From Bacteroidales bacterium (GTDB lineage: Bacteria; Bacteroidota; Bacteroidia; Bacteroidales; UBA3663): a stretch of DNA of 64,000 nt. The position numbers and the translations under genes are program-made. The stretch covers positions 7,449 through 71,448 of the forward strand of contig JAZRXX010000084.1 in the NCBI GenBank assembly GCA_045600485.1. The letters run 5' to 3'. The first letter of the stretch is position 1; each line of letters opens with the position of its first letter. Positions 2,188 through 64,000 of this stretch are shown in pieces. Under the pieces are notes generated by a model. It was not told where the DNA came from. It saw nothing but the letters and a program-made list of their open reading frames with translations, and made no database searches.

Positions 2188-2318
2188 CGAGTCTCATATT
2201 TATATAATGTTCGCGCGCGACTTTTATGTTTGTATTTCAAATCAACGATAATAGGCGTGTTTTTCATTACTTTTTTCAATAATTTTACGAAATATTTTGC
2301 CATATCGGAAGAAAGGTC

Positions 2319-2326
2319 TATCTTTG
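2319..2326 (+). promoter_or_regulatory. Bacteroidetes-type -7 box TAnnTTTG (uvrB)
   Basis: TATCTTTG, 25 nt upstream of ATG 2352. Confidence 0.5.
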
Positions 2327-2351
2327 CGCTTGTTAAGAGACTACAGAATAC

Positions 2352-4433: not shown

Positions 4434-4450
4434 AATAACCGCCTAGAGCC

Positions 4451-4525
4451 TCACTAATCGCATTGTGTACGCTCGAAGCACATTATCAACCAGGCCCATA
4501 TCTCGTCACTAACCGCATTGTTGAC
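4451..4525. repeat. 20-bp direct repeat x2 in the uvrB-fhs intergenic region
   Basis: TCACTAATCGCATTGTGTAC (4451-4470) and TCACTAACCGCATTGTTGAC (4506-4525), 17/20 identical with 55-bp spacing. Confidence 0.8.
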
Positions 4526-4557
4526 AGTGGAGAAGGCCATAAAACCTTTTTATCGAT

Positions 4558-6234
4558 ATGAAATCAGATATCGAAATTGCACGCGAGACTAAGCTCGAAC
4601 GTATCGAGAAGATCGCAGAGAAAGTTGGAATCAATCCAGCAGACATTTATCCTTATGGCCATTACATCGCCAAGGTACCATTGAATTACATTAATGAGGA
4701 GAAGGCTAAGAAGAGCAACCTGATCCTGGTAACATCCATCTCTGCCACCAAAGCAGGTATCGGTAAGACCACCGTTTCAATTGGTCTCGATCTCGGCTTG
4801 AACAAGATTGGCAAAAATGCCATCGTTGTGCTTCGTGAGCCTTCGCTCGGCCCATGCTTTGGCGTGAAAGGTGGTGCTGCTGGTGGCGGTTATGCTCAAG
4901 TATTACCTATGGAGAAGATCAACCTCCACTTTACTGGCGATTTCCATGCTGTGACATCAGCTCACAACATGATTACCGCTCTCCTTGACAACTACTTCTA
5001 TCAGCGTCGCAAGGAGCTTCCACCTCTCAAGCAGGTTCTTTGGAAGCGCGTACTCGATGTTAACGATCGCGGTTTGCGTAAGATCATTCAGGGTCTGGGC
5101 GGCTTGAACAACGGTCTGCCTCAGGAATCGGGCTTCGACATCACTCCTGCTTCTGAAATCATGGCAATCCTCTGTTTGTCTACATCTCGCGAGGATTTGC
5201 GTCGTCGAATCGAAAACATTCTCTTGGGTTATCGTTATGACGGAACCCCTTTCACCGTTAAAGACATGGGCTGTGCCGGCGCCATCTGCGTTCTCCTTGA
5301 GGATGCTTTGATGCCAAACCTCGTACAGACCTCAGAGAATACTCCAGCCATCGTGCACGGTGGACCTTTTGCCAATATCGCACACGGTTGTAATACCATT
5401 CTGGCTACCAAATTGGGCATGAGTTTAGCAGAATACACCGTGACAGAAGCTGGTTTCGGAGCAGACCTTGGAGCAGAAAAATTCCTCGATATCAAGTGTC
5501 GTAAGGCTGGTCTTTGTCCTAAACTCACGGTTGTGGTGGCTACCTGCAATGGTCTTAAGTTGCATGGCGGTGCCGATGCTGATCGCATCAAGGAACCAAA
5601 CATGGAGGCACTCCAGAAGGGCTTTGCCAACCTCGATCGCCATGTGCGCAACATGCAAGGCTTCGGCCAGACAGTTTTGGTCGCCTTCAACCGTTTTGCC
5701 AACGATACCGACGATGAAATCCAATGTCTCATTAACCATTGTGAAAAGGAACTCGGCGTGAAGTGTGTCGTGAACGATGGCTTCCTTCATGGTGGCGAAG
5801 GCGCAGCAGAACTTGCTAAGGCTGTCGTTGCTGAGATTGAAAATAACCCATCGCAGCCAACACTCAACTTCACCTATCAGGACGATGAAACACCGAAAGC
5901 CAAGATCGAGGCTGTTGCCAAGAAGATTTATGGAGCAGCATCTGTCTCCTTCAGCGAGAAGGCAAACAAGATGCTCAAGTTGGTGCATGACTCTGGTCTC
6001 GACTCCTTCCCTGTTTGCGTGGCCAAGACCCAGTTCTCGTTCACACCAGATCCAAAGAAGGTCGGCGCTCCTTCGGGATTCAACTTCGATATTCAAGACA
6101 TCGTCATCAATCAGGGCTCAGAATTCATTGTTGCTATTGCAGGTGAGATGATGCGTATGCCAGGACTGCCCAAAACTCCAGCAGCCGAAATCATTGATAT
6201 CGATGAAAACGGAGAAATTACTGGTCTTTCTTAA
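4558..6234 (+). CDS. fhs: Formate--tetrahydrofolate ligase
   Basis: 558 aa. It has the typical N-terminus MKSDIEIA and nucleotide loop [14 protein letters not shown]. Length and overall sequence are typical of FTHFS. Confidence 0.95.
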
Positions 6235-6338
6235 TTGTAAGAAATGATAAAAATGGTAAAACAAAGTTCTCTGCTTGTTTGATTCTTATCCAATTCTATA
6301 CAACGAGTGCAAAAAGAAAATAACTCGTCTATTGATAC

Positions 6339-6376
6339 AAAAAACACACTGCTTTCACGATAGCAGTGTGTTTTTT
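6339..6376. terminator. Bidirectional terminator between the convergent fhs and wHTH genes
   Basis: AAAAAACACACTGCT-ttcacgat-AGCAGTGTGTTTTTT is a perfect 10-bp GC-containing stem flanked by A-run and T-run. Confidence 0.7.
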
Positions 6377-6398
6377 ATCTTGTATAAAAAGAAGGATA

Positions 6399-6599
6399 TC
6401 AGAGAAGAGTAACAACAATATCGTCTTCAGACTTCTCAATGCAAACCTTGCCCTCGCGAGCGAGCCAACCCAAGGCTGCATACAAATCCTTATCACTCTT
6501 CAACTTGGTAGCCTTTTTAAGAGCTTTACCTGTTTGGCCATTTGAAGCATTAAGAGCATTCCAAATAAGACCTGCATTTGTTCCGATAATTTCAATCAT
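6399..6599 (-). CDS. Small winged-helix-like protein (DUF2582-like)
   Basis: MIEIIGTNAGLIWNALN...LGWLAREGKV resembles small wHTH proteins common in Bacteroidales. I prefer the internal ATG at 6599 over the track start at 6644. Confidence 0.5.
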   Translation of the reverse strand: MIEIIGTNAGLIWNALNASNGQTGKALKKATKLKSDKDLYAALGWLAREGKVCIEKSEDDIVVTLL

Positions 6600-6760
6600 A
6601 ACACAACATAGATTAAAAGTTAATAATAGTATTTGGTATTGCAAATGTACAACTCATATAGAAAACATCCAAAAAAAGGAACGAAAAAAGAGCAACTTAT
6701 GGTAATTATACCTTAAAGTCGCTCTTTTTTGCAATTTTTAACTATCAATAAAATAGTTCT

Positions 6761-8092
6761 TTACTTGATCCATCGAATAATCTCTTTGAAGGTAAATTTG
6801 CGACCATACATCAAGATTCCCGTACGATAAATACGTGCAGATATCCATAAAATACCTAAAGCTGTAGCATAAAGCAACATAAGACTACAAATCAATTCGT
6901 ACCATGGCAAATCATAAGGCAGACGAATCATCATTACTACAGGCGAAGTAAATGGAACCATCGAACACCAGAAGGCTAATGGTCCATCAGGATTCTCCAT
7001 CGAGAACATACCTGCATAAAGAGCAAATACCATAATCATCATGATTGGAGCAGTGAATTGAGAGGCATCACTTGCTTGATCTACAGCAGAACCAAAAGCG
7101 GCAAAGAGACTTGCATAGAGCAGGTAACCACCTATAAAGTAAAGTACAAAGCAGACCAGAATTTGAGTGTAGTTCACATTCAATACCATCTGAATGATAC
7201 GAGACATAGTATCATCGCCCATATTTGCCATTGCTTCAACTCCAGGACCATGAGGTTGCATACCCGCAAGTTCCGGCATAGAAGTTGCCATGGTAGAAAT
7301 CCCAAATATGGTACCGATAATGCTTAAAATAGCAGTCCAAAGGGCAATTTGAGTCAAACCAACCAATGCTACACCGATGATTTTTCCCATCATCAACTCA
7401 AATGGTTTGCAAGTAGAGATAATAACCTCGACAATACGGTTTGTTTTCTCCTCGACAACACTATTCATTATCATGGCACCATAGATGATGACAAACATAT
7501 AGGTCAGCAAAGCAAGGATGAGACCTAAAATCATGCTCAATTCGGAAGAAGAGATGCTCTCATCACCTTCTTTGCTCCATTTGATATTGGTAGTCTTGAT
7601 ACCAGGATCACAGTTATCAATAATAGCCTCCAAACTGTCTATTGCATAGGCCTTAATGCGTTCATCTCGTACCGCCTTTCTGAGCGAACGGGAGACGGCA
7701 CGTTCAAGACTGCCATTCACACTCTTTTCGCTATAAATAGAAACCTTTGTACTTTGCACCAGATCGGAGGGAATAACAACCAATGCATAAAGACTATTTT
7801 CATTCTGCTGATAAATCTGATGCATATCAACAGAAGAATCTACTGGGGCAGTAATTGATTGAAATATATAATCTTCATCATCATGAATTGAGGATGCAAA
7901 ACGAGCATTTTCGCTTTGGTCAACGACAGCAACGATTTTGCGCTCATCGCTTTTTGCTTGTGACATCAAAACAGGCAATACACCACACAAGATGATAGAA
8001 AGAATAGGAACCAGGATGGTAGTGAAGATGAAAGACTTCTTGCAAACCATCTGCACATACTCGCGTTTGATAATAATAGGAAGTCTACTCAT
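6761..8092 (-). CDS. ABC-2 type transporter permease (NatB-like)
   Basis: 443 aa. It has an N-terminal TM segment, a large extracytoplasmic loop and a C-terminal multi-TM bundle. It overlaps the upstream ATPase gene by 8 nt. Confidence 0.8.
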   Translation of the reverse strand: MSRLPIIIKREYVQMVCKKSFIFTTILVPILSIILCGVLPVLMSQAKSDERKIVAVVDQSENARFASSIHDDEDYIFQSITAPVDSSVDMHQIYQQNENSLYALVVIPSDLVQSTKVSIYSEKSVNGSLERAVSRSLRKAVRDERIKAYAIDSLEAIIDNCDPGIKTTNIKWSKEGDESISSSELSMILGLILALLTYMFVIIYGAMIMNSVVEEKTNRIVEVIISTCKPFELMMGKIIGVALVGLTQIALWTAILSIIGTIFGISTMATSMPELAGMQPHGPGVEAMANMGDDTMSRIIQMVLNVNYTQILVCFVLYFIGGYLLYASLFAAFGSAVDQASDASQFTAPIMMIMVFALYAGMFSMENPDGPLAFWCSMVPFTSPVVMMIRLPYDLPWYELICSLMLLYATALGILWISARIYRTGILMYGRKFTFKEIIRWIK

Positions 8093-8939
8093 AGTCGGTC
8101 GATTTTACAGTTTCAACAAATACTTCGTGCATGGATGGAAGAATCTCTCTGAATCCAGTTAATGCATATTCATCATTCAGACGTGCAATTGCATCATGCA
8201 TGGTTTCATTTTCCTTCAAGGTATAGTTGAAGGCTTGTCCTTCAGCAGTAGTAACTTCGAGTATGTTCTTCTTGAACTGTTGTCGGATATCACTAACCTT
8301 GCCTTGAAGCACAGCTTTCGCATGATTGATCAAGGTAATCTCTTGACAGACCTCCTCAACCGAAGACATATTATGGGTAGAAAAAAGAATTGCAGCTCCC
8401 TCATTCTTAAGGCGAAGAATTTCCTGCTTAAGCAAATCTGCATTTACAGGATCGAAGCCAGAAAAAGGTTCGTCGAAAATCATCAACGGTGGGCGGTGCA
8501 TTACCGTTGTGATAAATTGTACCTTTTGGGCCATACCCTTCGATAATTGTTCGAGTTTCTTGTCTGCCCATTCCGTCAAATTGAAACGCTGTAACCATTC
8601 GTCCATCGCAGTCCGCGCATCGTGTTTGCTCATGCCACGCAATTGGCCGAGATAAAGAATTTGATCAGAAACTTTCATTTTTTTGTACAATCCACGCTCT
8701 TCTGGCATATAACCTATATGACGAACGTCATCATCTGTCATAGGTTTGCCATGCATCAGTACTTCGCCACTATCGGCATGTGTAATTCTGTTGATGATAC
8801 GGATTAATGATGTTTTGCCTGCACCATTCGGTCCAAGCAATCCATAGATGCTGCCATCTGGAACTTCGAGCGACACATGATCGACCGCTGTATGTCCAGA
8901 ATACTGTTTGCAGACATCCTTAACTTGAATGTAAGCCAT
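8085..8939 (-). CDS. ABC transporter ATP-binding protein (NatA-like)
   Basis: It has Walker A GPNGAGKTS, signature LSKGMAQKV and Walker B MIFDEPFSGFD. Confidence 0.9.
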   Translation of the reverse strand: MAYIQVKDVCKQYSGHTAVDHVSLEVPDGSIYGLLGPNGAGKTSLIRIINRITHADSGEVLMHGKPMTDDDVRHIGYMPEERGLYKKMKVSDQILYLGQLRGMSKHDARTAMDEWLQRFNLTEWADKKLEQLSKGMAQKVQFITTVMHRPPLMIFDEPFSGFDPVNADLLKQEILRLKNEGAAILFSTHNMSSVEEVCQEITLINHAKAVLQGKVSDIRQQFKKNILEVTTAEGQAFNYTLKENETMHDAIARLNDEYALTGFREILPSMHEVFVETVKSTDYE

Positions 8940-9044
8940 TGTTGATTAAATCTGTTCCCAACCTTTCCCTTAAACAGTTCGGAACGTAATGTTTTGATAG
9001 TAAATAATACTCCCCTTCCCATAAGGGAGGGAAAGGGAGTTTGG

Positions 9045-10469
9045 TTATAGATTTTTTCTTAGCTCTTCGACTCGTTCTGCAATCCTTTGCAATTGGTCTG
9101 GAATACGGATCTTTTGTGGACAATGAGGTTGACATTTGCCACAGCCCACACAATGGTCTGCCTGACGAACAGATTCGACTGCACGATCGTAACTGATCAA
9201 ATACTCTTTGCGCAGACGGCGATAATCTGGATCCTCCTGATCTTTAGGCACTGCACCTTCGTTCACAAGTTTGTTGTAATGAACAAAAATAGATGGAATA
9301 TCGATACCATAAGGGCATGGAATACAATACTTGCAGTCATTACATGGAATTGTTGGATATTTCAGAATCATCTGAGCAGTCTCCTCGAGGAAGTCTTGTT
9401 CCTCTTTAGTCAACGTTTCCATTGGGCTATGGGTACGCACATTGTCTTGAAGATGTTCCATATAGGTCATACCACTCAAAGAACACATGACACCAGGATA
9501 TGTTCCCAAGAAGCGGAATGCCCATGAAGCAACGCTGTCCTCAGGACGGCTGGCCTTTAGGTGATTCACAACATGTGTAGGAAGTTTGACAAGACGACCA
9601 CCCAACAACGGTTCCATGATGACAGCAGGGATGCCACGTTTCTCCAATTCATAATATAAATATGAGGCATTGACATTGCGTGCATTTTGGGCTTTGGCAT
9701 TGTTCCAATCGACATAGTTCATTTGAATTTGGACAAAATCCCATTTGTAGCGACCTTCGTCATCCCATTTCAACATTTGGTCAAAGACTTCGACATCACC
9801 ATGAAAAGAGAAACCCAAATTTCGGATTACCCCCTTCTCCTTTTGTTCTACAAGCCAATCCAACAAACCATTGTTCATAAAACGCTGGTTGAAATTATCC
9901 ATGCCACCACCTCCAATGGAATGCAACAGCAAATAATCGATGTAGTCGGTCTGTAAGAATCGCAAAGAATCGCGCAACATCTTTTGCGATGCTTCAAGAG
10001 ATTGTGTCTGTGGTGCAAAATTGGAAAGCTTAGTGGCTATGAAGTAGCTGCTACGAGGATAACCAGAAGCTACCAACGCAGTACCAGTTGCCTCCTCCGA
10101 GAAGCCTTTGCAGTAAACCGGGCTTGTATCGAAATAGTTGACACCATGATCAAGGGCATATTTAACCAATTCATTAATACGTTCCTGATCCAGGTCATTG
10201 CCATCGGCACGAGCCTGCTCCTTATCGACTTGTGGTAAGCGCATCATACCATATCCAAGCAACGAAACCTTATCGTCACCTCGACGGTTCGTGCGATATG
10301 TCATCTCTCCCAGTGGCTTTTCCCCAGTTCCGACATTTCCAGTAATGGCATTAGCTACCTGCTGGCTACCAGCCCCACCGGTACAACTCTCAAGGGTTGC
10401 TACAGCACCCAATACAGCGCCGGCTGCGCCTGCACGCTTCAAAAACTCTCTTCTATCAAGATTCTTCAT
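9045..10469 (-). CDS. Tat-signal aldo/keto reductase with a C-terminal 4Fe-4S ferredoxin-like domain
   Basis: It has a twin-arginine leader (MKNLDRREFLKRAGAAGAV), an AKR core, and C-terminal Cys motifs (CNDCKYCIPCP and CVGCGKCQPHCP). Confidence 0.85.
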   Translation of the reverse strand: MKNLDRREFLKRAGAAGAVLGAVATLESCTGGAGSQQVANAITGNVGTGEKPLGEMTYRTNRRGDDKVSLLGYGMMRLPQVDKEQARADGNDLDQERINELVKYALDHGVNYFDTSPVYCKGFSEEATGTALVASGYPRSSYFIATKLSNFAPQTQSLEASQKMLRDSLRFLQTDYIDYLLLHSIGGGGMDNFNQRFMNNGLLDWLVEQKEKGVIRNLGFSFHGDVEVFDQMLKWDDEGRYKWDFVQIQMNYVDWNNAKAQNARNVNASYLYYELEKRGIPAVIMEPLLGGRLVKLPTHVVNHLKASRPEDSVASWAFRFLGTYPGVMCSLSGMTYMEHLQDNVRTHSPMETLTKEEQDFLEETAQMILKYPTIPCNDCKYCIPCPYGIDIPSIFVHYNKLVNEGAVPKDQEDPDYRRLRKEYLISYDRAVESVRQADHCVGCGKCQPHCPQKIRIPDQLQRIAERVEELRKNL

Positions 10470-10475
10470 GGTTCA

Positions 10476-11996
10476 TCAGATTTCACGTTGAACTTCAATA
10501 CCCTCGACATGAATAGCCGAGAATGGACGAGATGGACACAAGTGCTCGCATGCACCACAACCTATGCAACGTTCTTCGTTGACCGAAGGGATTTTCAATG
10601 ACTTAGAATCGTTCGGATCGGATGGGACCATTGTGATAGCTCCAGCAGGACAGTGACGAGCGCAATTGCCACATTTCACGCCATCGGTAAGAGGAATACA
10701 ATTATCTTTAATCCAAACAGCACGGCCAATTTTGAGACTAGCCTTATGTGCCATCTTCTCTTCGTGTGTCGATCCCAGAGGTTTGATTGCTCCGGCAGGA
10801 CAAACATCACTGCAGGCATGGCATTCTGGGCGACAATGGCCATTTTCGTAGCTCAATGTAGGTTGCAGATAATGCAACAAGCCGGTTGACGGTGATAACA
10901 CCCCATTCGGACAGGCTGTAACACACAACTGGCAGCCTGTACAATGTTGCTGGAGATTTTTCAAGGATAACGATCCAGGAGGACAGATGACGGTCTGTCG
11001 CTCATAGCGCTTCTTATCTTCGATTTCTCCCCAAACACCATCAACAAACTTCTCTTCAGCCTTTAACTTCGCAGCTGCAGTAACAGCAACTGCAGTAGCC
11101 AGAAATGTTCGTCTGCTGGAATCTGTATTATTCTTTTCTCCTGTCTCTACATTCTTTACACGTCCAAAAGAAATGGCATCTTTGTGACAGGCAGAAAGAC
11201 AGTCGAAGCAGTCCACACAACGAGAATTATCGATATAGGTATTCTTGGAGTCAATAGCCATGGCCTTGCATTTACGCTCACACAGACCACACTTTACACA
11301 TTTCTGTTCATCGATGTGGATTCGTAACAAAGAGCGTCGAGAAAGAACACCTAAGACGGTACCCACCGGACAGATATTGTTACAATAAAAACGGCCACCA
11401 AAAGCAGAAGATACCATTATGATGACAATTGAGACGAAGGCTGTGATAACCAGCGAAAGATTGAGGCCACTCCAAGTAACATGGTAGAATGCATAACTAT
11501 CCTGCGAAGCAGCCCAATCGGCCAGCCACTGATTGACCTGCCAAATCAAAGGACGTACCAACGAGGTAACCATGCGACCATAAGAACTGTAAGGTGCCAG
11601 CCACTGCACGATGAATCCTCCTCCCAAACACAAGGCCACAAGGAAGACAACCAAGCAGACAATACGCAGAACCTTACTCCAAGTTGGCACCCAGAAATGG
11701 TAACGTCCCAACTTGCTCTTGGACGTAAAGCGAACAACACGGTCTGCCCAATGAATGAACACATCCTGCAAAACACCCAAAGGACATACTACAGAACAAT
11801 AGATGCGACCAATTAGCAAAGTCGCAACAACCCACAAGACGACAACGCCGACATTGACTGCCATAATAGCTGGCAGAAACTGTAACTTTGCCATCCAACC
11901 CAACCAGACGTGCGTTGCGCCGGTCAAGTCACAGAAAAGAATTGTGATACTCAGCCAAAATAACAAGGCTAAAGCAACACGAAATTTCTTCAACAT
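10476..11996 (-). CDS. Membrane-anchored polyferredoxin (NapH/MauN-like 4Fe-4S binding protein)
   Basis: 506 aa. It has N-terminal TM helices with CxxC-type motifs (CSVVCPLG, CNNICPVG). These are followed by several CxxCxxCxxxCP clusters (CVKCGLCERKC, CTGCQLCVTACP, CGNCARHCP, CIGCGACEHLCP). Confidence 0.8.
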   Translation of the reverse strand: MLKKFRVALALLFWLSITILFCDLTGATHVWLGWMAKLQFLPAIMAVNVGVVVLWVVATLLIGRIYCSVVCPLGVLQDVFIHWADRVVRFTSKSKLGRYHFWVPTWSKVLRIVCLVVFLVALCLGGGFIVQWLAPYSSYGRMVTSLVRPLIWQVNQWLADWAASQDSYAFYHVTWSGLNLSLVITAFVSIVIIMVSSAFGGRFYCNNICPVGTVLGVLSRRSLLRIHIDEQKCVKCGLCERKCKAMAIDSKNTYIDNSRCVDCFDCLSACHKDAISFGRVKNVETGEKNNTDSSRRTFLATAVAVTAAAKLKAEEKFVDGVWGEIEDKKRYERQTVICPPGSLSLKNLQQHCTGCQLCVTACPNGVLSPSTGLLHYLQPTLSYENGHCRPECHACSDVCPAGAIKPLGSTHEEKMAHKASLKIGRAVWIKDNCIPLTDGVKCGNCARHCPAGAITMVPSDPNDSKSLKIPSVNEERCIGCGACEHLCPSRPFSAIHVEGIEVQREI

Positions 11997-12061
11997 GGTT
12001 AGATAGATTTGTTGTTAATAAAAAGGTTACAATTATATATGTTAGATGATAGTTCAAAAAA

Positions 12062-13237
12062 TTACGAGAACATGTTCTTGACTTTCTGGCGGAACTTATC
12101 GAACAAAGAGGGTGAAGTACCAAAATTCTTGCGAGTTTTGAGATCTGTCAGAATCTTCTTCTCTTCTTCATCAAGGTGCTCTGGCACATAAACACCGATA
12201 TTGACAATCATATCGCCCTTTCGTCCACTGCGACCATAAGGGTCAAGTGTTGGCACACCTTTACCTTGAAGACGCATCTGTGTGTTTGGTTGTGTACCTG
12301 GAGCAATCTTGATGGTAGTTGTTCCTTCCACCAATGGAATCTCAACTTCTCCACCCAATGCAGCAGTCGGGAAATCAAGCAAAAGTGAATATATCAAAGT
12401 ATCATCTTGACGAATAAATTGATTCTGATGCTCCTCTTCAATCAATACAAACAAATCGCCTTTAGCGCCACCATGACGACCAGCATTTCCGTAACCGGAC
12501 ATATTGAGCTGCATACCCTCTGCTACACCTGCAGGAATCTTGATGGTTACAGTCTCCTCGCCCATTACGACACCCTCGCCATTACAATGCTGGCAACGAG
12601 TTTTTATCTTTTTGCCAGTTCCCTGACAATCTGGACATACAGCTTCGCTTTGAGCAATACCGAAAATGGTTCGAACTTGTTTCATAACACGTCCAAGACC
12701 ATGGCATTTCGGGCAAGTTTCATACTCTGTCCCATCTTTGGCACCAGTTCCATTACAATGTGAACAAGCAACATATTTCTTCAGTTTTAGATGCTTCTCG
12801 ACTCCATTTTGAACATCAGCCAAGGATACTTTGACACGAACACGTATATTCGATCCTCGATTAACAGTCGTATCATCATCATCTCCACCAAAAGAGAAAC
12901 TAAAACTAGAACCATTTCCTCCAGCACCACCGCCAAAAAAGGAATTGAAAATATCAAAAGGATTGAATCCAGAACCTCCACCTCCGAAGCCGGCACCAGG
13001 GTCGTTGAAACCAAACTGGTCGTAACGAGCACGTTTTTGAGAATCGCTCAACACTTCGTATGCCTCGGCACACTGTTTGAAGTTGTCTTCTGCCTCTTTC
13101 TTCTCGGCATCGGATTTGCCATTCTGTCTATCTGGATGATATTTAACAGCTAATTTTCGATATGCTTTTTTAATTTCTTCATCACTGGCATTTTTGTCAA
13201 CGCCAAGCACTTCATAATAATCTCTTTTCTCTGCCAT
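12062..13237 (-). CDS. dnaJ: Molecular chaperone DnaJ
   Basis: It has a J-domain HPD (KYHPDRQ), a G/F-rich linker, and four CxxCxGxG repeats ([32 protein letters not shown]). Confidence 0.95.
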
Positions 13238-13240
13238 GTT

Positions 13241-13810
13241 TTATTTAACCTTAAAAATCGTACACAATTCTTCGAAACGCATAACGCTTTCTGGACCAAA
13301 TTTCTGCACAGATGCCTTGACCCGCTCTAACGTTTTTTCTTTCTCCGGCGAAGATTTCGAATAGAATTTATCTGCCAGACAAACCAACTTTTCCTCCAAT
13401 GTTTCTGGCACCAAATCACAATCGAGAGGTAACGGAAGATTCTGCTTCTGGATATCATTGCGAGTCAACCCTGTTCCGGTATGACGTTCGCAAATACGAG
13501 CACATGCTTCCATATCCAAGCCGGTTTCTTGTCCATACTGACGCAACATATCAGCCCCCTTGGTTCCATGCAGCAGATAGGGTTCTTTACCTTCACAATG
13601 AATGCCAGGAGCATCACACTGTATGATTCCTATGTCGTGCAAGAGGGCACCGTCGTTGACCGATTGAACATCAATATCCAAACCTCTCAACTCTGGATTG
13701 CCCAAAATCGAGAGCGCTTTGTCCCTGACCTGAGTGCTATGCAGAATCAAAAGACGCCTAAGAGGCGTATCTTCTGGATAAAAATGGCGTATAACGTCTA
13801 AAGCAACCAT
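13241..13810 (-). CDS. HD/HDIG-domain phosphohydrolase
   Basis: 189 aa with the LLHDIGI motif. It lies immediately upstream of dnaJ, separated by 3 nt. Confidence 0.8.
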   Translation of the reverse strand: MVALDVIRHFYPEDTPLRRLLILHSTQVRDKALSILGNPELRGLDIDVQSVNDGALLHDIGIIQCDAPGIHCEGKEPYLLHGTKGADMLRQYGQETGLDMEACARICERHTGTGLTRNDIQKQNLPLPLDCDLVPETLEEKLVCLADKFYSKSSPEKEKTLERVKASVQKFGPESVMRFEELCTIFKVK

Positions 13811-13905
13811 GTATTTTTCTTATTTTTGCAAAATAATTTTGAATATTGATTTTTTTTTATTTACTTTGCGCCGCAAATATAATTAATTATTTTTAAATAG
13901 CGCAC

Positions 13906-15138
13906 ATGAGTGGCAAGTTTTCGTCTTTTTTGATCGTTTTAGCCTATTTTTTAGTACAGATGACATCCTGTACAGCGCAAATTAGCAATCCAGATACCAA
14001 ATCCGAGGTTACACAATCTGCCCAAATGCCCCTTCGGACTGGTGCTGAACAGATGACAAAATATCTTCCTCTATTGCAAGACAAGAAGGTCGCAATGCTT
14101 GTCAACCAAACTTCGATTGTTCCCGATATTTCAAGCAAGAACATTCCGTTGGTTGACTCATTGATTAGCGCCGAAATTGACATTCGTTTTTTAATGGCTC
14201 CAGAACACGGATTGAAAGGCATATTGAGTGCTGGTGCTACCGTTGGCGATGCAAGATATGGGAAATTACAAGACCTCCAGGTATATTCACTTTATGGAAA
14301 AAACAAGAAGCCACAAAGCGAATGGCTCGATTCTGTCGATTGTGTTGTTTTTGATATTCAGGACGTAGGTTGTCGATTCTACACTTATCTTTCGACTCTA
14401 TACTATCTGCTCGAAGCCTGTGGTGAGACAGGTACCGACGTTATCATACTCGATCGTCCCAATCCACAAGATACCATTGATGGTCCTGTTCTTGAACCCA
14501 AATTCCAATCCTTTGTCGGGATGGTTCCAGTTCCGTTACTGCATGGCTGTACTTTAGGAGAATTGGCGATGATGATGAAAGGTGAAGGATGGGTAAAGAC
14601 TGTCAAATCCTACAACCTGACAGTTATTCCTTGCCAAGGGTGGAAACATGGAGATGATTATTCTTTGCCTGTTGCCCCCTCTCCTAATTTACGAACCGAC
14701 CACGCCATTCGAATCTATCCAAGTCTTTGTCTTTTTGAGGCTACAGACATCAGTGTTGGCAGAGGAACAGACTGTCCTTTCGAAGTTCTCGGACACCCAC
14801 AGATGAATGGGGAGTTTACTTTTACCCCCCAGCATTGTGAATCAGCCACACATCCGTTACAGGAAAACAAACTCTGTCACGGATATGATTTGCGTAATAT
14901 AACAGTCGAAAAAGGATTCCATTTGCAATGGTTACTTGATTGCCACCAGCAGTTTGCTACGTCACAGCAACCCACTGGTTGGATTAAACAAAATACCTTC
15001 TTTGACAGACTTGCCGGTACAAATCAATTACGACAGATGATCGCCGAAGGCAAGAGTGAGGAGATCATTCGATCCACTTGGCAAGAGAATTTGACACAAT
15101 ATCGAAACATACGTGCCAAGTATCTGCTTTATCCGTAG
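13906..15138 (+). CDS. DUF1343-family protein (NamZ-like exo-beta-N-acetylmuramidase candidate)
   Basis: It has a signal/lipoprotein-like N-terminus. The motifs VAMLVNQTSIV and FDIQDVGCRFYTYLSTL are characteristic of DUF1343. Confidence 0.8.
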   Translation: MSGKFSSFLIVLAYFLVQMTSCTAQISNPDTKSEVTQSAQMPLRTGAEQMTKYLPLLQDKKVAMLVNQTSIVPDISSKNIPLVDSLISAEIDIRFLMAPEHGLKGILSAGATVGDARYGKLQDLQVYSLYGKNKKPQSEWLDSVDCVVFDIQDVGCRFYTYLSTLYYLLEACGETGTDVIILDRPNPQDTIDGPVLEPKFQSFVGMVPVPLLHGCTLGELAMMMKGEGWVKTVKSYNLTVIPCQGWKHGDDYSLPVAPSPNLRTDHAIRIYPSLCLFEATDISVGRGTDCPFEVLGHPQMNGEFTFTPQHCESATHPLQENKLCHGYDLRNITVEKGFHLQWLLDCHQQFATSQQPTGWIKQNTFFDRLAGTNQLRQMIAEGKSEEIIRSTWQENLTQYRNIRAKYLLYP

Positions 15139-15211
15139 CATGTTGCTTTGATTTTATTGTTAATTTATTTTCGTTCCATTCTGCATTTTTACTTATATTT
15201 TGCATCGCTTA

Positions 15212-18200
15212 ATGACCATATTCAAGAATTTATTGCATGTCGTGGCTATCACGGCAGGTATTCTTGTACTGGTTCTTTATGTTTTTTTACATTACAATCT
15301 TGCTGGACTGATTGTTGAAAATGATATCCAGCAAAAACTGACCGAAAAACTTCAGGCACGTGTAGAAATTGGAGAAATTGAGGTAACTTGGACCAACCAG
15401 ATAGCAATGAACCAGATTGTTATCTATGACCAGAAAGAGGACACTCTTCTCTACGCTCGTCGTGCTATGATAGCCCTCGAAATTGGCCCATTGCTCAACC
15501 AACAGTTAATTGTCAATACCATCCAATTGATCGATTTTGATTTGTTTGTGCGCAAAGAATCTCCCGATGCCAATACAAATTATCTATTCTTGGTCGAAGC
15601 CTTGATGCCAAAGCAGGAAGACCAACAGCGAAAGTTTCTTAACGATATCTCGATTCATGCCTTATTGTTGCGACAAGGAAAGGTTTCATACGATGTTCTT
15701 GACCAGCCATACAATACACATCCAACCATACCAGATCACAATCACATTTCATTCAGCGATTTGAGTGCCCGCCTGGAATTGGAGGTATCACACAAGACCG
15801 GATTGGAACTTAATCTAAAGCGAATGTCATGGAAGGAGAAATGTGGTATCGTTCTCCAGAATCTGAAGGGTAAGGGATATCTTGTAGCTGATAGCATTCG
15901 TCTAGAAAATATCTCTATAGAGATGACTCACGTGGTATCGGATGGCACAATATGTCAACTGGAAACTCACGGACAAGCACAAATCTTCGATGATTCGCTC
16001 TCGCTTCAAATCAACAATTTCGATCTGGAAGCAGATACTTGGGGAGAACTCCATGCCAGACTACAAATCGATACCAGATTAGATTCGATAGCCCAAAACA
16101 GTTATGAAGCAGAATTCATCAACAGCCACATTTCGAATGTAGGCTTTTCGTCAATTGCCAATGCTTTCGAATTTAAGCTTCCGAATGAAATACAAACATG
16201 GATTGGCCAAATTGAAGAACTCCATTGGCAGGGCGTCATTACTGGGAGTGATACCCAAAACTACCAGTACAAGGGTGACATCTCAACTAAGGGGGTATTC
16301 TCAAGTCGATTGACAACAAATATAAATTATCAGGCAGAGAATGTTCAGCCTTTAACCATTACTCTCAATGGTCAAATTCCGTCCATCGCCTATTTGGACC
16401 ATACCTACAGAAATCTATCTATCGAAGGTCTATACAACGGACAAGAACTGATTGCTGACTTCGATAGCCAAGACCCCATGCTTGTTGCTTTTGGCCATGC
16501 AGAAATAGCATTCAACTCAGACGAAACAAACGTACAAGGTTATGCCGACATCCAACGTGTGAATCCGTATCAAATTCATTTGTCTGAATTGTCAAATCTT
16601 GAAGGACTGAATTTTCGTGGTATCGTGCAAATGGACATCTCAATTCCTCAATCATTCAATACCGAGAATCTGTCATTCAATTTGAACAACTATCCTACTG
16701 GAACAATTCGCATTGATTCTTTACAGATATCAAATAGATCAGAAATCGTCAATTTGGGAACAACACGTATGACAATGCAACGAGAACAGGGTTCGAACGT
16801 ATTTGCCGTTGTTTCTCCTATTGCCAATATCGTTGGTACCCAGACCTCGATTATTGGATATCTACCAACCAATCCTCAATTCTCACATATTCTGAAATTT
16901 CCAGGAGAGTTGGCTCAAGACATGACTATACAGGCAGAATGGGATACTCTCAGAAATCATATCTCTATCAATGCGTCGATTCCTGAATGGAAGCAAGACG
17001 AAGCATCGTACAGTGTTCTTCTAAAAGGTGAAGGCCAAACCACAAAAGAAAGCCCGATGCCGACTTTGATGGAAGCAAATGTTCAGTTGGCCTACAAAAA
17101 TGAAACTCATGAACTTTTTTCTAGCCTGACAATGAACTATGAGCCAGATCCGATGATTATCCAACTGGCGCCATCAACACTTACGATCGACGGGAAACAG
17201 TTTAACACCACCAATGCTGTACTTCGACAGCAAGATAAAGAGTCTTACAAACTGGATAATCTGTTAGTTGAAGACCAGGACCAGAAGCTTGAAATCTCGG
17301 GCATATTTGGCTATAGTCAAGGAATGAATATGGAGGTCCGACTCGACAAATGGCAGTTGGATTTCTTTCTGGATATGCTCCAAAAAGATTATCTTGATTT
17401 CGGTGGTTACGCTTCTGGCGATATTAGGCTGTTTCGCGATTCCACATTACAGTTCAAGACCTATTCTCTCGCCATTACAGATTTTACCTACATCGGAAAA
17501 CGTCTTGGAGATGGCGACCTGACATGCTTCTGCGATCTTGACAAGGGAAAACTGAAATTTATTGCAGACATCGAAAGTTATCCAGGTCACCATACCAATG
17601 CAGAATGTGATGTTAGGTTGCACGAAGTGCACGACAGCATCGATTTGAGAGTCCAAATGGATTCGTTACCAATTGAGTTTCTCTCCTATTGGGTTGGCGG
17701 TGTCACCCAAGACCTGCATGGGCACGGTACAGGTGAAGCCCGTTTGTTCGGTGACTGCGATTCGCTTCATTTGGTCGGCAATCCATTGCTTCAGAACGTA
17801 AACTTTACCAACGATCTGCTTGGCGCACGATTCTTTATCACCGATACAATCAACTTGACCAGTAATATGGACACGGGGAAGGGATTTATCGGCTTGAACA
17901 ATGTTACTGTCCGAGACCGCAATGGGCAAAAGGCTATCCTCACGCTTGATCTTGAACACAAGTACCTCCATAACATTGAGTATGGTCTCGATCTTGATAT
18001 TCCTGAGTCCAATCAGGGATTCCTTCTCTATGATCACCCGACACAAAACAATGGAGAACTATATTGGGGACGATTATGGGCTACTGGGCGATGTCAGATG
18101 CATGGGACATATTCGCACCATCGAATCAATGTTCAGATGTCGCCATCGGGACGTTCCATTTTCAATTTGTCTCCAGGTGAAGAGAATTTTACAGACAATG

Positions 18201-54793: not shown

Positions 54794-54867
54794 GGTTCCG
54801 TAGCTTAGCTGAATAGAGCGTCAGATTCCGGTTCTGAAGGTCGTGGGTTTGAATCCCACCGGAATCA
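54794..54867 (+). tRNA. tRNA-Arg (anticodon CCG)
   Basis: I folded the cloverleaf by hand. The acceptor stem is GGTTCCG/CGGAATC, the D stem GCTT/GAGC, and the anticodon stem TCAGA/TCTGA with loop TTCCGGT (anticodon CCG). The T arm is GTGGG-TTTGAAT-CCCAC and the discriminator is A. No CCA is encoded. Confidence 0.9.
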
Positions 54868-54873
54868 CTACCA

Positions 54874-55211: not shown

Positions 55212-56420
55212 ATGAAAAAGAATTTCGTTACCCCTGTGTTCAACCGTAGAAAGGATCTTGAGAAGAAAGGTTTTAGCAAGGTCGAGTTATTAATCTGTCT
55301 GACACGTAAAGACAAAAAGTACATCTCTATCAAAGAGTGCAATCAGAAGGAATGGGATTTATATCAGCATAGCTCAGAACTGAGAGCACAAGTAGCACTC
55401 TACAATGACATCGTCAACAAGATGTATGACCGCAATGAAGAGATGACCGTTGCCAACTTCAACGAGCGCATTGGTATCAAGGATCGGAAGTCAGAGAAGA
55501 AGGAAATGGAGAAACGCATATTCTCCCCTACCAGTTTCATCGACTTCATGCGCGAGGAACTTGCCAAAGAGAAGATTGTTGAAGGCACACGCAAGCATAC
55601 GAAAGGCGCCATCGATGCCATTGAGGAGTTTGGCAGACTGAACAGGTTTGCCGATCTCACCCCGAAGAATGTAAAGGCATTCGATGAAGCCATGAGATCA
55701 GTGGTAACTTCGAAGGGCAAGGTCAGAACTGATACCACCGTTGACAACTATCACAAGGTGCTGAAGAAGTATGCCCGACTTGCCTACGAATATGACTACA
55801 TCGAGAAGAATCCTTACGAGCATCCAATGTGTCACTTCAAGAAAGGCGAGTGCGCAGAACGTCAGCCTCTCAATGAAGCAGAACTGAAGAAACTCATCTC
55901 GATGCAGTTTATCTGCAATAAGAAGGAAACAGCCCGAGACCTCTTCATCTTCAGTGCCTACACAGGACTTGCCTACATTGATGCACAAAGCTTCGACTTC
56001 GAGAACATGACCGAGAAGATCGGAGATACATATTATATAGATGGCGCGCGCGTAAAGACAGGACAGGCATTCTTCACTCCGATATTGCCTCCTGCCATGG
56101 AGATTCTGAAGAAGTACGACTACAATCTTCCGAAGATCTCCAATCAGAAGCTTAACGATTATCTGCATCTGGTGCAGTCCGAGGCAAATATAACCAAAAA
56201 CATGACGAGCCACGTTGCGAGACATTCCTTCGCTACCCTTCTCATCTCATATGGTGTACCTATCGAGAATGTTGCGAAGATGATGGGACACGCAGAGATC
56301 AAGACCACGCAGATGTATGCCAAGGTCATGAAAGAGACCGTCGATAAGTTCACTCAGAACCTCCTTCGCGAGATGACTCCTCAGAAGAAAAAAGTAGGAA
56401 GACCCAAGAAGACTGCCTAA
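55212..56420 (+). CDS. Tyrosine-type site-specific integrase (Bacteroidetes IntDOT-like family)
   Basis: 402 aa. It has HxxR (HVARHSFATLL) and a catalytic Tyr (TTQMYAKV). Box I reads AYTGLAY, with Ala where the canonical Arg I sits and an Arg 12 residues upstream, as I recall for IntDOT. It lies 345 nt downstream of the tRNA-Arg. Confidence 0.9.
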   Translation: MKKNFVTPVFNRRKDLEKKGFSKVELLICLTRKDKKYISIKECNQKEWDLYQHSSELRAQVALYNDIVNKMYDRNEEMTVANFNERIGIKDRKSEKKEMEKRIFSPTSFIDFMREELAKEKIVEGTRKHTKGAIDAIEEFGRLNRFADLTPKNVKAFDEAMRSVVTSKGKVRTDTTVDNYHKVLKKYARLAYEYDYIEKNPYEHPMCHFKKGECAERQPLNEAELKKLISMQFICNKKETARDLFIFSAYTGLAYIDAQSFDFENMTEKIGDTYYIDGARVKTGQAFFTPILPPAMEILKKYDYNLPKISNQKLNDYLHLVQSEANITKNMTSHVARHSFATLLISYGVPIENVAKMMGHAEIKTTQMYAKVMKETVDKFTQNLLREMTPQKKKVGRPKKTA

Positions 56421-62364: not shown

Positions 62365-62384
62365 AGACAAATCATTTTTGTGCG

Positions 62385-62392
62385 CAAAAATA
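62385..62392 (-). promoter_or_regulatory. Bacteroidetes-type -7 box TAnnTTTG directly upstream of the tape-measure gene
   Basis: The minus strand reads TATTTTTG, 20 nt upstream of ATG 62364 and downstream of the 62475-62502 terminator. Confidence 0.5.
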
Positions 62393-62474
62393 CCGCTAAA
62401 AAACAGAGTCCGAAAAGACGTGCAGACAGCACTTTCATATCGACTTTTAGAAAGATTTGAAATTTTCAAGGACT

Positions 62475-62502
62475 CAAAAAGAAAACACGCTGAATATCAG
62501 CG
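62475..62502 (-). terminator. Intrinsic terminator candidate (minus strand)
   Basis: The minus strand reads CGCTGA-TAT-TCAGCG followed by TGTTTTCTTTTTG. It is preceded by an 11-12 bp hairpin (TCGAGGGGAAAA-GTA-TTTTCCCTTCG, about 62510-62536). It lies about 85 nt upstream of the TMP promoter box. Confidence 0.55.
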
Positions 62503-62682
62503 CAAAGGGGTCGAGGGGAAAAGTATTTTCCCTTCGTTTCCGCGAGAGCAGCCCCCGACCGCCCTGCGTAATAGGCACTTTGAAAATTTGAAAATCGTTG
62601 CGGAATATGTAAGGGAGTTTCGCAAAAATCGTTGTTCTACGCGCTTGCCGCTGAAATTTTGCCGCAAAGGTCGCGCTTCGCT

Positions 62683-62878
62683 GATGATGGAGAGAGTTTC
62701 GGGATTTCGACCGATGGAGAGGGTTTCGCTTCTGCTGACGATGGGGAGAGTTTCTGCATTTTGACCGATGGCAAAGGGTTTCGCTTTTGCTGACGATGGG
62801 GAGGGTTTCGGGATTTTGACCGATGGCAAAGGGTTTCGCTTCTACTGATGATGGAGAGGGTTTCGCTTTGCGATGACC
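62683..62878. repeat. Seven tandem degenerate 27/28-bp repeats
   Basis: The GATGG unit starts at 62686, 62713, 62740, 62767, 62795, 62822 and 62850. The consensus is GATGG-RGAG-GGTTTCG-(5-6 variable)-TTGAC(C). Two subtypes alternate (..GGGATTTTGACC and ..CTTCTGCTGAC), giving a super-period of about 55 bp. Confidence 0.9.
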
Positions 62879-62914
62879 GCCAACCGCTAACGCGCGGTGG
62901 AAGGCTTGCCTACG

Positions 62915-63008
62915 AAAAAGAAAAAAGGGCGGTAAAAGCAAGTATGAAGATGTTTTGCGTGCAATACCTATGGATTTGCATCCGAAATTTCTTCATTCTT
63001 GCTCGCCC
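62915..63008 (-). terminator. Long interrupted hairpin plus T-run (minus strand)
   Basis: Three helices stack: GGGCG(62927-31)/CGCCC(63004-08), GCAAG(62938-42)/CTTGC(62998-63002) and ATGAAGA(62944-50)/TCTTCAT(62990-96). On the minus strand the hairpin is followed by TTTTTTCTTTTT (62915-62926). Confidence 0.55.
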
Positions 63009-63147
63009 TGCGGATAAAGAATACTATTCGACGGATCTGCTTGTTGTGCGGCACGAAAGGGCAAGTGACGTAGGAACCTGCTTTTCATGCCAGCACATAA
63101 AAGGAAGATACGACGATTTGTATTCTATCCTGATGCCTTGGCATTAT

Positions 63148-63205
63148 GAGGTGGAACCTTGACTGAGGATTAGTGAAACCAAGACGAAGTGAAGAGGTGG
63201 AACCT
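63148..63205. repeat. 12-bp perfect direct repeat GAGGTGGAACCT x2 (46-bp spacing)
   Basis: The copies are at 63148-63159 and 63194-63205. A third GGAACCT is at 63073-63079. Confidence 0.85.
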
Positions 63206-63688
63206 GAGTAGGCAATGCCTGACATAGCCGAAGGCTTTAGGGAGAGAAAGGAGGACAATGCAGATGCGCGGTAGAGAACGGAATGGAGAGAACAGAAGCA
63301 TAGGGAGGGCAACAGCATAAGTGGACTCGTGTGGCGGACGCCCGCCACACATAAAGGAAGCCGTAGGAATGTGGAGGACACCTATGCTATTGCCAGACCG
63401 GTGAGCCGTATGTCGGTGTGGCAGAACAGAGTGCCATGCTCTTGCGAAGGAAAAAGGCATCATCTATTCGCTGCTATAGGAACGGAATATAGAGCCTGGT
63501 GTTCAGGCGTAGATGGAAGGTACTGGAATGAATGGAGAGCCGATGCAGTGATTTGTTGATGCCCCGTAGCAACAGCATAGCACTCCTGCCACACGGACAT
63601 CGGGCAATGCGCTATTCTCATAATGGAGGGCGTAACTGTGTGCAGATGCGTGTCCTCCTTTCTGGGTGGGTGGGGCTAGCGTAAGCTT

Positions 63689-63853
63689 ATGGCGTAAGCA
63701 AAAGGGCGCTGAAGGCGCGAGTGTGCAAAGCAAATGGGCTAAGACGAAGAGCAAAAAAGAAAGAGAGGATCCTGTCAAGGGTCCTCTCTGGAGTGATGAT
63801 TATGGCGAAGCGATAAGGCGCAGAAGGCGCGAATGGTGCGAAGCAGATGGACT
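63689..63853. repeat. Direct repeat pair of about 52 nt flanking the 63753-63789 hairpin
   Basis: The copies are ATGGCGTAAGCAAAAGGGCGCTGAAGGCGCGAGTGTGCAAAGCAAATGGGCT (63689-63740) and ATGGCGAAGCGATAAGGCGCAGAAGGCGCGAATGGTGCGAAGCAGATGGACT (63802-63853). Confidence 0.8.
63753..63789 (-). terminator. Intrinsic terminator candidate (minus strand)
   Basis: The minus strand reads AGAGAGGACCC-TTGACA-GGATCCTCTCT (8 bp, one mismatch, then 2 bp) followed by TTCTTTTTTGC. Confidence 0.6.
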
Positions 63854-64000
63854 TTAGTGATGTGCGAATGCAGAAAAGAGCGAATGCTGAAGGGTGCCGC
63901 TGCCGGCACTTGACAATGGCAATGGCTGCTATGTTTTTCGTAGAAATCATAGTAGCGATTGCTGAAAAGAGATAGGCAGAAAGATTACTTCCTACTATGT

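Follow-up and report, generated by a model that had tools for sequence, protein, structure and literature searches.

Introduction

In bacteriophage lambda the tI/sib element is a retroregulator downstream of int (a 1989 paper by Plunkett and Echols appears in the reference list of PMC5371410), and the intergenic RNase III hairpins of phage T7 and the REP, BIME and ERIC palindromes punctuate operons and leave protective 3′ stems. The subject of this work is a gene-free stretch of DNA that precedes the gene for a tape-measure protein (TMP) in an integrase-bearing prophage-like element, at positions 62365–64000 of a 64-kb window (the window is the whole 64,000-nt piece of Bacteroidales DNA that was analysed, and unlabelled positions refer to it). 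Sequence comparison identifies this stretch as an enlarged copy, with repeats and extra hairpin modules, of a conserved spacer in integrase-bearing prophage-like elements of Prevotellaceae/Bacteroidaceae, and the spacer as a real, conserved and previously undescribed structured non-coding element. We favour, at a probability of roughly 40%, the reading that the spacer is an array of terminators and processing hairpins acting in the sense of the adjoining genes, together with control DNA for the TMP promoter.

The resemblance to lambda tI/sib is one of arrangement: a terminator hairpin with its U-tract stands directly after a gene and is nested in a longer stem, a layout found throughout the 20-sequence hairpin alignment described below. 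The sequence is unrelated, however, the family hairpin follows a lysin gene rather than int, and in the window it is one of several stems that are much longer; moreover, RNase III cleavage and two promoter classes are known for lambda, whereas the present likeness is one of sequence layout. Imperfect hairpins in spacers between co-directional genes are shared with the T7 RNase III hairpins and with REP, BIME and ERIC, but the stems here are 140–400 nt long, not 40–130 nt, they occupy a single synteny instead of being dispersed, and they are accompanied by conserved blocks and tandem repeats. The large RNAs ROOL, GOLLD, HEARO and OLE are comparable in being strongly structured over hundreds of nucleotides and in residing in a prophage-like element close to a tRNA integration site; unlike them, the present stretch gives no covariance-model match even at E up to 10, nearly lacks GNRA loops, shows no strand bias in wobble pairs and is mostly rod-like in architecture. 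Iteron origins and repeat-based centromere or packaging sites also set lineage-specific direct repeats beside conserved blocks in gene-free DNA, but here nothing adjoining the unit was recognised as a cognate initiator, ParB or TerS gene, AT-rich stretches and DnaA boxes are missing, and long covarying hairpins are not a feature of such sites.

Results and discussion

A gene-free gap with many relatives

Chromosomal DNA fills the window as far as a tRNA-Arg gene (54794–54868), beyond which lie the genes listed in Table 1. We studied the stretch from upstream of the TMP start codon (ATG at 62364, minus strand) to the window edge; its 1636 nt are a lower bound, the stretch being open at 64000 with the far-side gene beyond that position. 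The gap is real, gene-free DNA and not a decayed gene. The longest open reading frame (ORF) in the six frames is 155 aa, the ORFs overlap one another, and TAA, TAG and TGA are all present in each frame, with 11 stops even in the least interrupted one; a recoded genetic code is rejected because all three stops interrupt every frame. When 10 ORF translations were compared with the Pfam families, the sole match was PTR2 (E 0.0096, below the cut-off), and tblastn of all ORFs of related loci against the stretch found no gene remnant: its echoes are nucleotide-level in the first ~260 nt and, beyond that, scattered weak matches of 16–58 aa with E ≥ 1e-4. A reading of this DNA made earlier from the letters alone (the sequence-only reading) had seen no protein-like ORF here, had argued that the mixture of stops defeats a single-stop recoding, and had allowed that homologous loci might carry intact genes; the first two points are borne out, and the relatives’ ORFs gave no sign of the third. 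Its remark that the stretch exceeds the other gaps of the window also holds, since the next largest measure 587, 533 and 526 nt, shorter than the stretch by a factor of at least 2.8.

TMP has many homologues (4921 at E ≤ 1e-20), the closest being 94% identical, in a locus (L001) whose contig ends inside the tandem repeats, and the rest at most 63% identical over the full length. The loci around them, from Prevotella/Bacteroidaceae metagenome-assembled genomes (MAGs), rumen and gut metagenomes and IMG/VR, repeat one arrangement: integrase, a ~595-aa gene, TMP, a gene-free gap, a lysin gene (Amidase_2 or peptidase M15) and, at a greater distance, an ArdC-like gene. In more than 40 related loci a common unit fills this gap, and it lies between lysin gene and TMP in those with both neighbours visible. 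That integrase-bearing prophage-like elements share it agrees with the association with a mobile element suggested by the sequence-only reading. The gap ranges in length from ~0.38 kb (the short form, as in L005 and L007) to ~2.4 kb, and is ~2 kb in L004, L002, L029, L036 and L039.

The blastn alignment of relatives to the window is limited to ~160 nt next to the TMP promoter. A search pattern made of the invariant core of block M2 plus block M3 recovered 17 loci from MAGs of Prevotella, Alloprevotella and Bacteroidaceae as well as 10 contigs from IMG/VR, and a pattern for the conserved hairpin found 19 further loci. In the orientation of the window’s plus strand the order of the unit is the TMP promoter box (minus strand), M1, M2, a variable small hairpin, M3, a spot of tandem repeats, one to three copies of GATGTGCGGTG (block M4), a hairpin of ~140 nt and the stop codon of the lysin gene. 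M2 in the relatives is likewise a hairpin followed by CCCCCGACCGCCCTGC, and M3 is GCGGAATATGT; the window’s M2 is ~75–77% identical to that of relatives whose TMP proteins are ~60% identical to its own. In relatives the long hairpins have M4 at their base; it was found in the alignment of short units and in L002, L027, L029 and L036. The repeat spot, by comparison, holds unrelated repeats: 7 nt in L007, ~100 nt with GGTCTCA cores in L026, L029, L034 and L036, and ~91 nt in L039.

Base pairing in the conserved hairpin and the long rods

The alignment of the ~140-nt hairpin comprises 20 distinct sequences and 40 pairs. Standard pairs occupy 87.7% of its cells, as against 32–49% for slid partners, and no shuffle reaches the observed values. 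Compensatory changes on both sides occur in 12 of the 40 pairs, and the lower helices covary. Mean nucleotide identity of the hairpin is 0.755, compared with 0.727 for the first 1.2 kb of the TMP gene. Wherever both genes are visible the hairpin has the lysin gene on one side and the TMP start on the other; in L005, L030 and L004 it begins 0–50 nt past the upstream stop codon. All 24 placed loci have it in one orientation, with the TMP and lysin genes on the other strand. In the window, our covariance model R1 matches a diverged copy at 63416–63594 on the plus strand (25.5 bits, E 3.5e-6 in a 1.7-kb search).

Longer structures occur in several relatives. L004 has two domains of a 420-nt type (copies B and C), with an AGAAAG.../...CTTTC closing helix, inner pairs that differ from those of the window and a G-rich tail, and L027, L039 and L002 carry tandem rods of 400–430 nt flanked by GGGTGGG. 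The two L027 rods, 430-nt paralogues, are 71% identical; they have 100 pairs in common, and 15 double compensatory changes distinguish them. Because these rods have diverged in sequence yet kept their pairs, the pairing is judged to be selected throughout the family; the substitution patterns of hairpin and rods together indicate that base pairing is under selection. In the window, the fold of 63040–64000 (961 nt) lies far below its shuffles in energy (z −8.45 for the plus strand and −9.45 for the minus strand), whereas two coding controls of the same length gave −0.26 and +0.07. The exceptional structure claimed from the letters alone is thus real, and the conservation and covariation by which that claim could be checked are present in orthologues and paralogues alike. 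So, too, are the direct repeats, nested long-range complementarity and three minus-strand terminators that it listed: a 55-nt unit is repeated 3.5 times at 62674–62865 beside smaller repeat families, and a helix of 13/13 bp (63245–57/63651–63) encloses one of 20 nt (63405–24/63586–605).

These data bear on the proposal that the stretch is decayed pseudogenes or functionless filler, which we regard as hardly credible. The great variation of the gap in length (0.38 to ~2.4 kb) and content, and the many elements for which the short form suffices, would fit such a view. Against it stand the lack of any protein remnant in tblastn and Pfam searches, folding z-scores of −8 to −9 compared with ~0 for coding controls, the double compensatory changes, and a hairpin as conserved as the TMP coding sequence.

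Strand-specific signals

The evidence on which strand is used is mixed, and it is this evidence that decides between the remaining readings. The minus strand of the window, on which TMP reads, is called the gene-sense strand below. The Bacteroides −7 promoter consensus is TAnnTTTG, as quoted in PMC4747536. A perfect −7 box stands on the gene-sense strand 165–331 nt from M3 in nearly all of ~45 loci, and no conserved plus-strand box was found at a fixed position between −420 and +1300 around the unit in the same loci. Sites at which a hairpin is followed by a U-tract number 30 on the gene-sense strand of seven gap regions, against 14.8 ± 3.4 in dinucleotide shuffles (maximum 23), while the plus strand has 6 against 8.7 ± 3.0. 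These two independent strand-specific signals favour the gene-sense strand. In the window, sites that combine a stable hairpin with a U-tract on the gene-sense strand, as in intrinsic terminators, have U-tracts running from 63762, 62926 and 62485, with a weaker one from 63455. The last of these belongs to the conserved hairpin, in which the gene-sense strand reads apical stem and then UUUUUCC; all 20 aligned sequences retain a tract of four to six U behind the apical stem, which separates helix 4 from the 3′ arm of helix 3.

The preferred reading builds on this arrangement. On this view transcription of the spacer would follow the direction of the lysin and TMP genes. The spacer separates the last late gene, that for the lysin, from the TMP operon. 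A polymerase leaving the late operon would meet a series of long hairpins, several with U-tracts (63762, 63455, 62926 and 62485), and it is therefore proposed that late transcripts stop there, ending in stable or cleavable stems. Since the U-tract of the conserved hairpin precedes the 3′ arm of its longer stem, only RNA that reads through should form the full duplex: a transcript stopped at the U-tract would keep a short protective stem, whilst a read-through transcript would complete the long duplex, and a double-strand-specific RNase would cut that form only. Transcription for the TMP operon would start afresh at the −7 box (62385–62392). Given the tI/sib layout of the hairpin, the spacer may thus serve to end and process late transcripts and to insulate the TMP operon. 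Blocks M1 to M3 and the lineage-specific repeats, placed just upstream of the TMP promoter, would most simply be regulator-binding DNA. If terminators in stems are indeed the correct explanation, the spacer would be an example of post-transcriptional operon punctuation in Bacteroidales phages, where regulation is largely unknown.

Several observations weigh against this reading. Terminators normally need neither 1.6 kb, nor 400-nt rods, nor conserved primary sequence, and the length of the rods, the conservation of their primary sequence, the G-rich tails and the C/U-rich loops are poorly explained by it; so is L037, which has kept the unit although its TMP and lysin genes are both lost. Among the pairs of the covariance model, as read on the plus strand, 65 cells are G·U and 28 are A·C, and the stem at 63763–63788 has a single U·G wobble there, which on the sense strand is a C·A mismatch. 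Unpaired bases of the gene-sense strand are mostly pyrimidines (C 0.35, U 0.39, G 0.05). Such C/U-rich loops are unusual for a functional RNA and can be accounted for loosely, for instance as Rho-loading sequence.

The sequence-only reading had favoured one or more large structured non-coding RNAs, and a natural form of this idea is a trans-acting RNA made from the plus strand and antisense to the TMP gene. We consider it possible but not the best supported reading, and on balance unlikely. The plus strand is loaded with purines (952 of 1636, or 58%; G 489 versus C 312), with a GC skew of +0.17 to +0.33 and an AT skew of up to +0.31, and the strand asymmetry reported earlier, including hand counts of 49/60 and 41/60 purines in two blocks, proved exact on recounting. 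The bases left unpaired in the plus-strand fold are largely A and G (A 0.46, G 0.31, U 0.16, C 0.06), as is typical of natural structured RNAs. The branched domain closed by long-range helices, the wobble pairs of the covariance model, and G·U pairs on the plus strand in the closing helices of L004 copies B and C would also suit such an RNA. Its want of a conserved promoter box and of terminator enrichment, set out above, tells against it, as does the absence of a match to any Rfam family. Where a helix position is flanked by pairs predicted on both strands, G·U (40 cells in 16 columns) is outnumbered by A·C (68 cells in 25 columns), and GNRA accounts for 1 of 23 plus-strand tetraloops. Hence the structured, non-coding character, the mobile setting and the lack of a known family stand from the earlier proposal, and the purine-rich plus-strand RNA that it implied does not find comparable support.

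Folding energy is of limited help in choosing between the strands. For 63040–64000 the minimum free energy is lower on the plus strand (−361.6 versus −306 kcal/mol), but the shuffles differ by the same ~60 kcal/mol and the plus-strand z-score is no better than that of the minus strand. Choosing a strand by minimum free energy or by strand-specific alifold structures was rejected as uninformative: such differences track base composition, and the wobble pairs selected are particular to each strand. Among the conserved hairpins the gene-sense strand folds more stably in 19 of 20 (mean −60.2 versus −53.4 kcal/mol), and the consensus fold is lower on that strand too, which counts for the preferred reading.

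A site in the DNA, or RNA genes in their own right

The unit could instead act as DNA in cis, the alternative that the sequence-only reading had offered, as an origin, a cos/pac or partition site, or a source of hairpins in single-stranded DNA, with the repeats binding a lineage-specific protein. Such a function would account for unrelated repeats (7, 27/55, ~91 and ~100 nt) at one position, in the manner of iterons or centromeres, for the GC-rich invariant blocks, and for compensatory changes that are almost all Watson-Crick and lack strand bias. In the lambda prophage cos lies just after the lysis genes, and the unit, just after a lysis gene, has a cos-like position. An SSB gene lies inside the L002 stretch, ArdC occurs in relatives, and L037 retains the unit without TMP or lysin, all of which would suit a DNA-level role. 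Even so, we hold this explanation to be improbable, to much the same degree as a plus-strand RNA. No initiator, terminase or partition gene was recognised adjoining the unit in the relatives examined, where most neighbours are without a family match; contigs end in repeats or genes and not at a conserved GC-rich block; and strand-specific U-tracts after stems are not predicted by a function of double-stranded DNA. An iteron-type origin in particular was rejected: repeats are present, but GC content is 0.44–0.53 in 300-nt windows of the stretch, leaving no AT-rich unwinding segment, and in place of a DnaA-box cluster there is a single one-mismatch site at chance level. A cos/pac site was likewise set aside, no terminase being recognised in L005 or L065. 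Were the cis site or the plus-strand RNA nevertheless to prove correct, the spacer would represent a new large RNA or a site that lets small elements replicate or be packaged.

Two further readings treat the hairpins as modules that make RNA. In one, the long hairpins are separate gene-sense genes for non-coding RNAs (‘RNA morons’) with terminators of their own, whose C/U-rich loops would act in trans, say on translation starts rich in purines or on a host factor. Three strong gene-sense terminators spaced ~830 and ~440 nt apart would fit, as would a promoter-like site with one mismatch (TTGCTTTG, preceded by TTTG) that closely follows the first terminator, at 63733. The modules are tandemly duplicated in L004, L027 and L039 with their pairing kept, and the region is a plasticity zone with cargo genes in L002 and L037. 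On the other hand no conserved gene-sense promoter box recurs inside the spacer across loci, no target was identified, and the C/U-rich loops are a compositional observation; this possibility appears distinctly more remote than the two just discussed. In the other, the 140–430-nt rods with their flanking GGGTGGG / GTGCGGTG would be a new class of modular phage RNA, made from either strand, abundant in lysogeny or induction and acting in trans, for instance as a decoy or sponge for some host factor that binds RNA or senses double strands. That is a speculative suggestion, and a doubtful one; if the modular-RNA reading were true, tandem duplication of modules could be understood as dosage evolution.

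Other classes of element were rejected on specific grounds. Dispersed palindromic repeats (MITE, REP, ERIC) do not fit a single copy in the window and 24 of 24 hairpins in the same orientation and one synteny. A Bacteroidales inverton is excluded by the fixed orientation (model scores of 70–140 versus 20–39 bits) and the lack of a conserved −7 box inside. Type III toxin-antitoxin RNA and CRISPR were dismissed since no family-matched ORF follows the repeats on either strand and the repeats run head-to-tail without spacers.

Features of the window copy

Table 1. Features in and beside the gene-free stretch, by window position
Feature	Position	Strand	Description
Tyrosine integrase gene	55212–56420	+	After tRNA-Arg
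595-aa gene		−	Between integrase and TMP; no family match
TMP gene, 1374 aa	58243–62364	−	PHROG tape-measure families, Pfam PF10145
TMP promoter (P_TMP), −7 box TATTTTTG	62385–62392	−	21 nt upstream of ATG 62364; exact TAnnTTTG match
Block M1 ATTTGAAATTTTCAAGGACTCAAAAAG	62455–62481		Conserved in alignments of relatives’ units
Near-palindrome TTGAAATTTTCAA	62456–62469 (in M1), recurs 62580–62593		Inverted repeats
Terminator-like site	62476–62503	−	Hairpin 62486–62503, then UUUUCUUUUU on gene-sense strand
Block M2	62507–62568		GGGGTCGAGGGGAAAAGTATTTTCCC hairpin, then CCCCCGACCGCCCTGC
Block M3 GCGGAATATGT	62600–62610		Invariant in alignments
Tandem repeats	62666–62884		55-nt unit × 3.5 = eight ~27.5-nt subunits of form GATGGnGAGnGTTTCG
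Long hairpin, strongest terminator-like site	62917–63008	−	Stem 62927–63008, ΔG −30.9 kcal/mol, then UUUUUUCUUU
Degenerate M4 copy TTGTGCGGCAC	63043–63054		Read from sequence; M4 = GATGTGCGGTG
420-nt branched domain	63245–63663		Closed by perfect 13-bp helix AGAAAGGAGGACA / TGTCCTCCTTTCT
Diverged copy of conserved ~140-nt hairpin	63405–63605		~80-nt insertion in tip
G-rich tail GGGTGGGTGGGG	63664–63675	+	Directly after 13-bp closing helix
Two ~28-nt direct repeats	63696–63835		Each with GCGC-loop-GCGC hairpin; nearby AGCGTAAG motifs
Gene-sense terminator-like site	63753–63788	−	Hairpin 63763–63788, then UUUCUUUUUU

Near the promoter, the small hairpin at 62486–62503 is common to L001 and L002 and missing from some other relatives. 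The two copies of TTGAAATTTTCAA flank block M2 in the window only, and look like an operator pair near the TMP promoter. Further away, the G-rich tail is the only match to GGGTGGGTGG in the 64-kb window, one mismatch being allowed; the same motif follows long hairpins, always on that strand, in L004, L002, L027, L029, L036 and L039. The AGCGTAAG motifs recur in L004 on sequence comparison. GTGGGTGG was considered as a host Chi-like site and rejected, as the 64-kb window has no other copies. The 5′ arm of the closing helix, AGAAAGGAGGACA (63245–63257), is a perfect Shine-Dalgarno-like sequence, and the 3′ arm, UGUCCUCCUUUCU (63651–63663), resembles the 3′ end of 16S rRNA; since this likeness is lost in L004 it is probably a coincidence.

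Database searches

Rfam 15, which includes ROOL, GOLLD, HEARO, OLE, group II intron, RNase P, 6S and tmRNA models, gave one hit at threshold in the whole window, the tRNA-Arg. At E up to 10 the stretch had five matches, all far below their gathering cut-offs; the best, SNORD123 (23.5 bits versus a cut-off of 45), falls on the 62927–63008 hairpin with E 0.11 and is spurious. Nor was there any Rfam match inside the equivalent gaps of 11 related loci, so the earlier statement that no known RNA family is recognisable here can be extended to the relatives. The stretch had no blastn match in phage and plasmid records, the conserved motifs searched as text in the literature led to no paper; Rfam, the phage and plasmid records that were searched and the searchable literature thus all lack this element.

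Exact-protein look-ups of the window’s TMP, 595-aa protein and integrase found none on record, scans of genome and viral collections with the TMP N-terminus for close relatives gave no confirmed match, and exact scans of IMG/VR for two window hairpins found none. The pattern CTTTC-N(1-2)-GGGTGGGTGGG had 17 matches in IMG/VR, mostly in GC-rich contigs and none related to the window beyond the motif; because they stand beside CAT, the reverse complement of ATG, many of them look like ribosome-binding-site contexts. A second attachment site was sought in the stretch and discarded, as no repeat of at least 10 nt is shared with the tRNA-Arg/int region.

The elements and their other contents

The hosts are almost uncharacterised Prevotella/Bacteroidaceae prophage-like elements that are common in rumen and gut metagenomes; one TMP variant is found on 66 contigs. 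No cultured-phage relative of the TMP exceeds ~32% identity, and the gene content of the relatives is partly resolved, most of their proteins being without a PHROG or Pfam family. Short-read metagenome contigs of L001, L003, L008, L044, L052, L056, L060 and L061 end at or near the repeat spot (the equivalent of 62666–62884 in the window), and the elements are therefore often split in assemblies. In practical terms the repeat spot interrupts metagenome assembly, and the region attracts spurious ORFs from gene callers.

In L002 the gap is interrupted at 7018–8146 by an SSB gene together with a toxin-antitoxin-like pair, HigB(Gp49)/HTH, which leaves gene-free parts of 1.0 kb and 1.4 kb; the insertion position behaves there as a cargo hot spot. 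A second ORF-free stretch of ~1 kb occurs in L005 (2127–3100), at the far end of the element and upstream of the ArdC-like gene, without a copy of the conserved hairpin. At the integrase end, an FopS-family small RNA (RF04319) lies beside tRNA genes in L002 (17761–17832, minus strand) and L037 (2951–3017, plus strand); Rfam found none next to the tRNA-Arg of the window. There the integrase and 595-aa genes converge with a 4-nt overlap (56417–56420) and no terminator between them, and int transcripts would therefore run antisense into the tail genes.

The L005 element is ~14.5 kb long (about 2200–17300), and similar ones are found in L043, L050 and L063; it consists of the ArdC-like gene, a DUF6712 gene, a few unknown genes and those for the amidase, TMP, a ~594-aa protein and the integrase. 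Capsid, portal and terminase genes were not recognised in elements of this type, which may be phage satellites or very divergent phages. L065 has the look of a fuller phage, with portal-like and tail-fibre-like genes.

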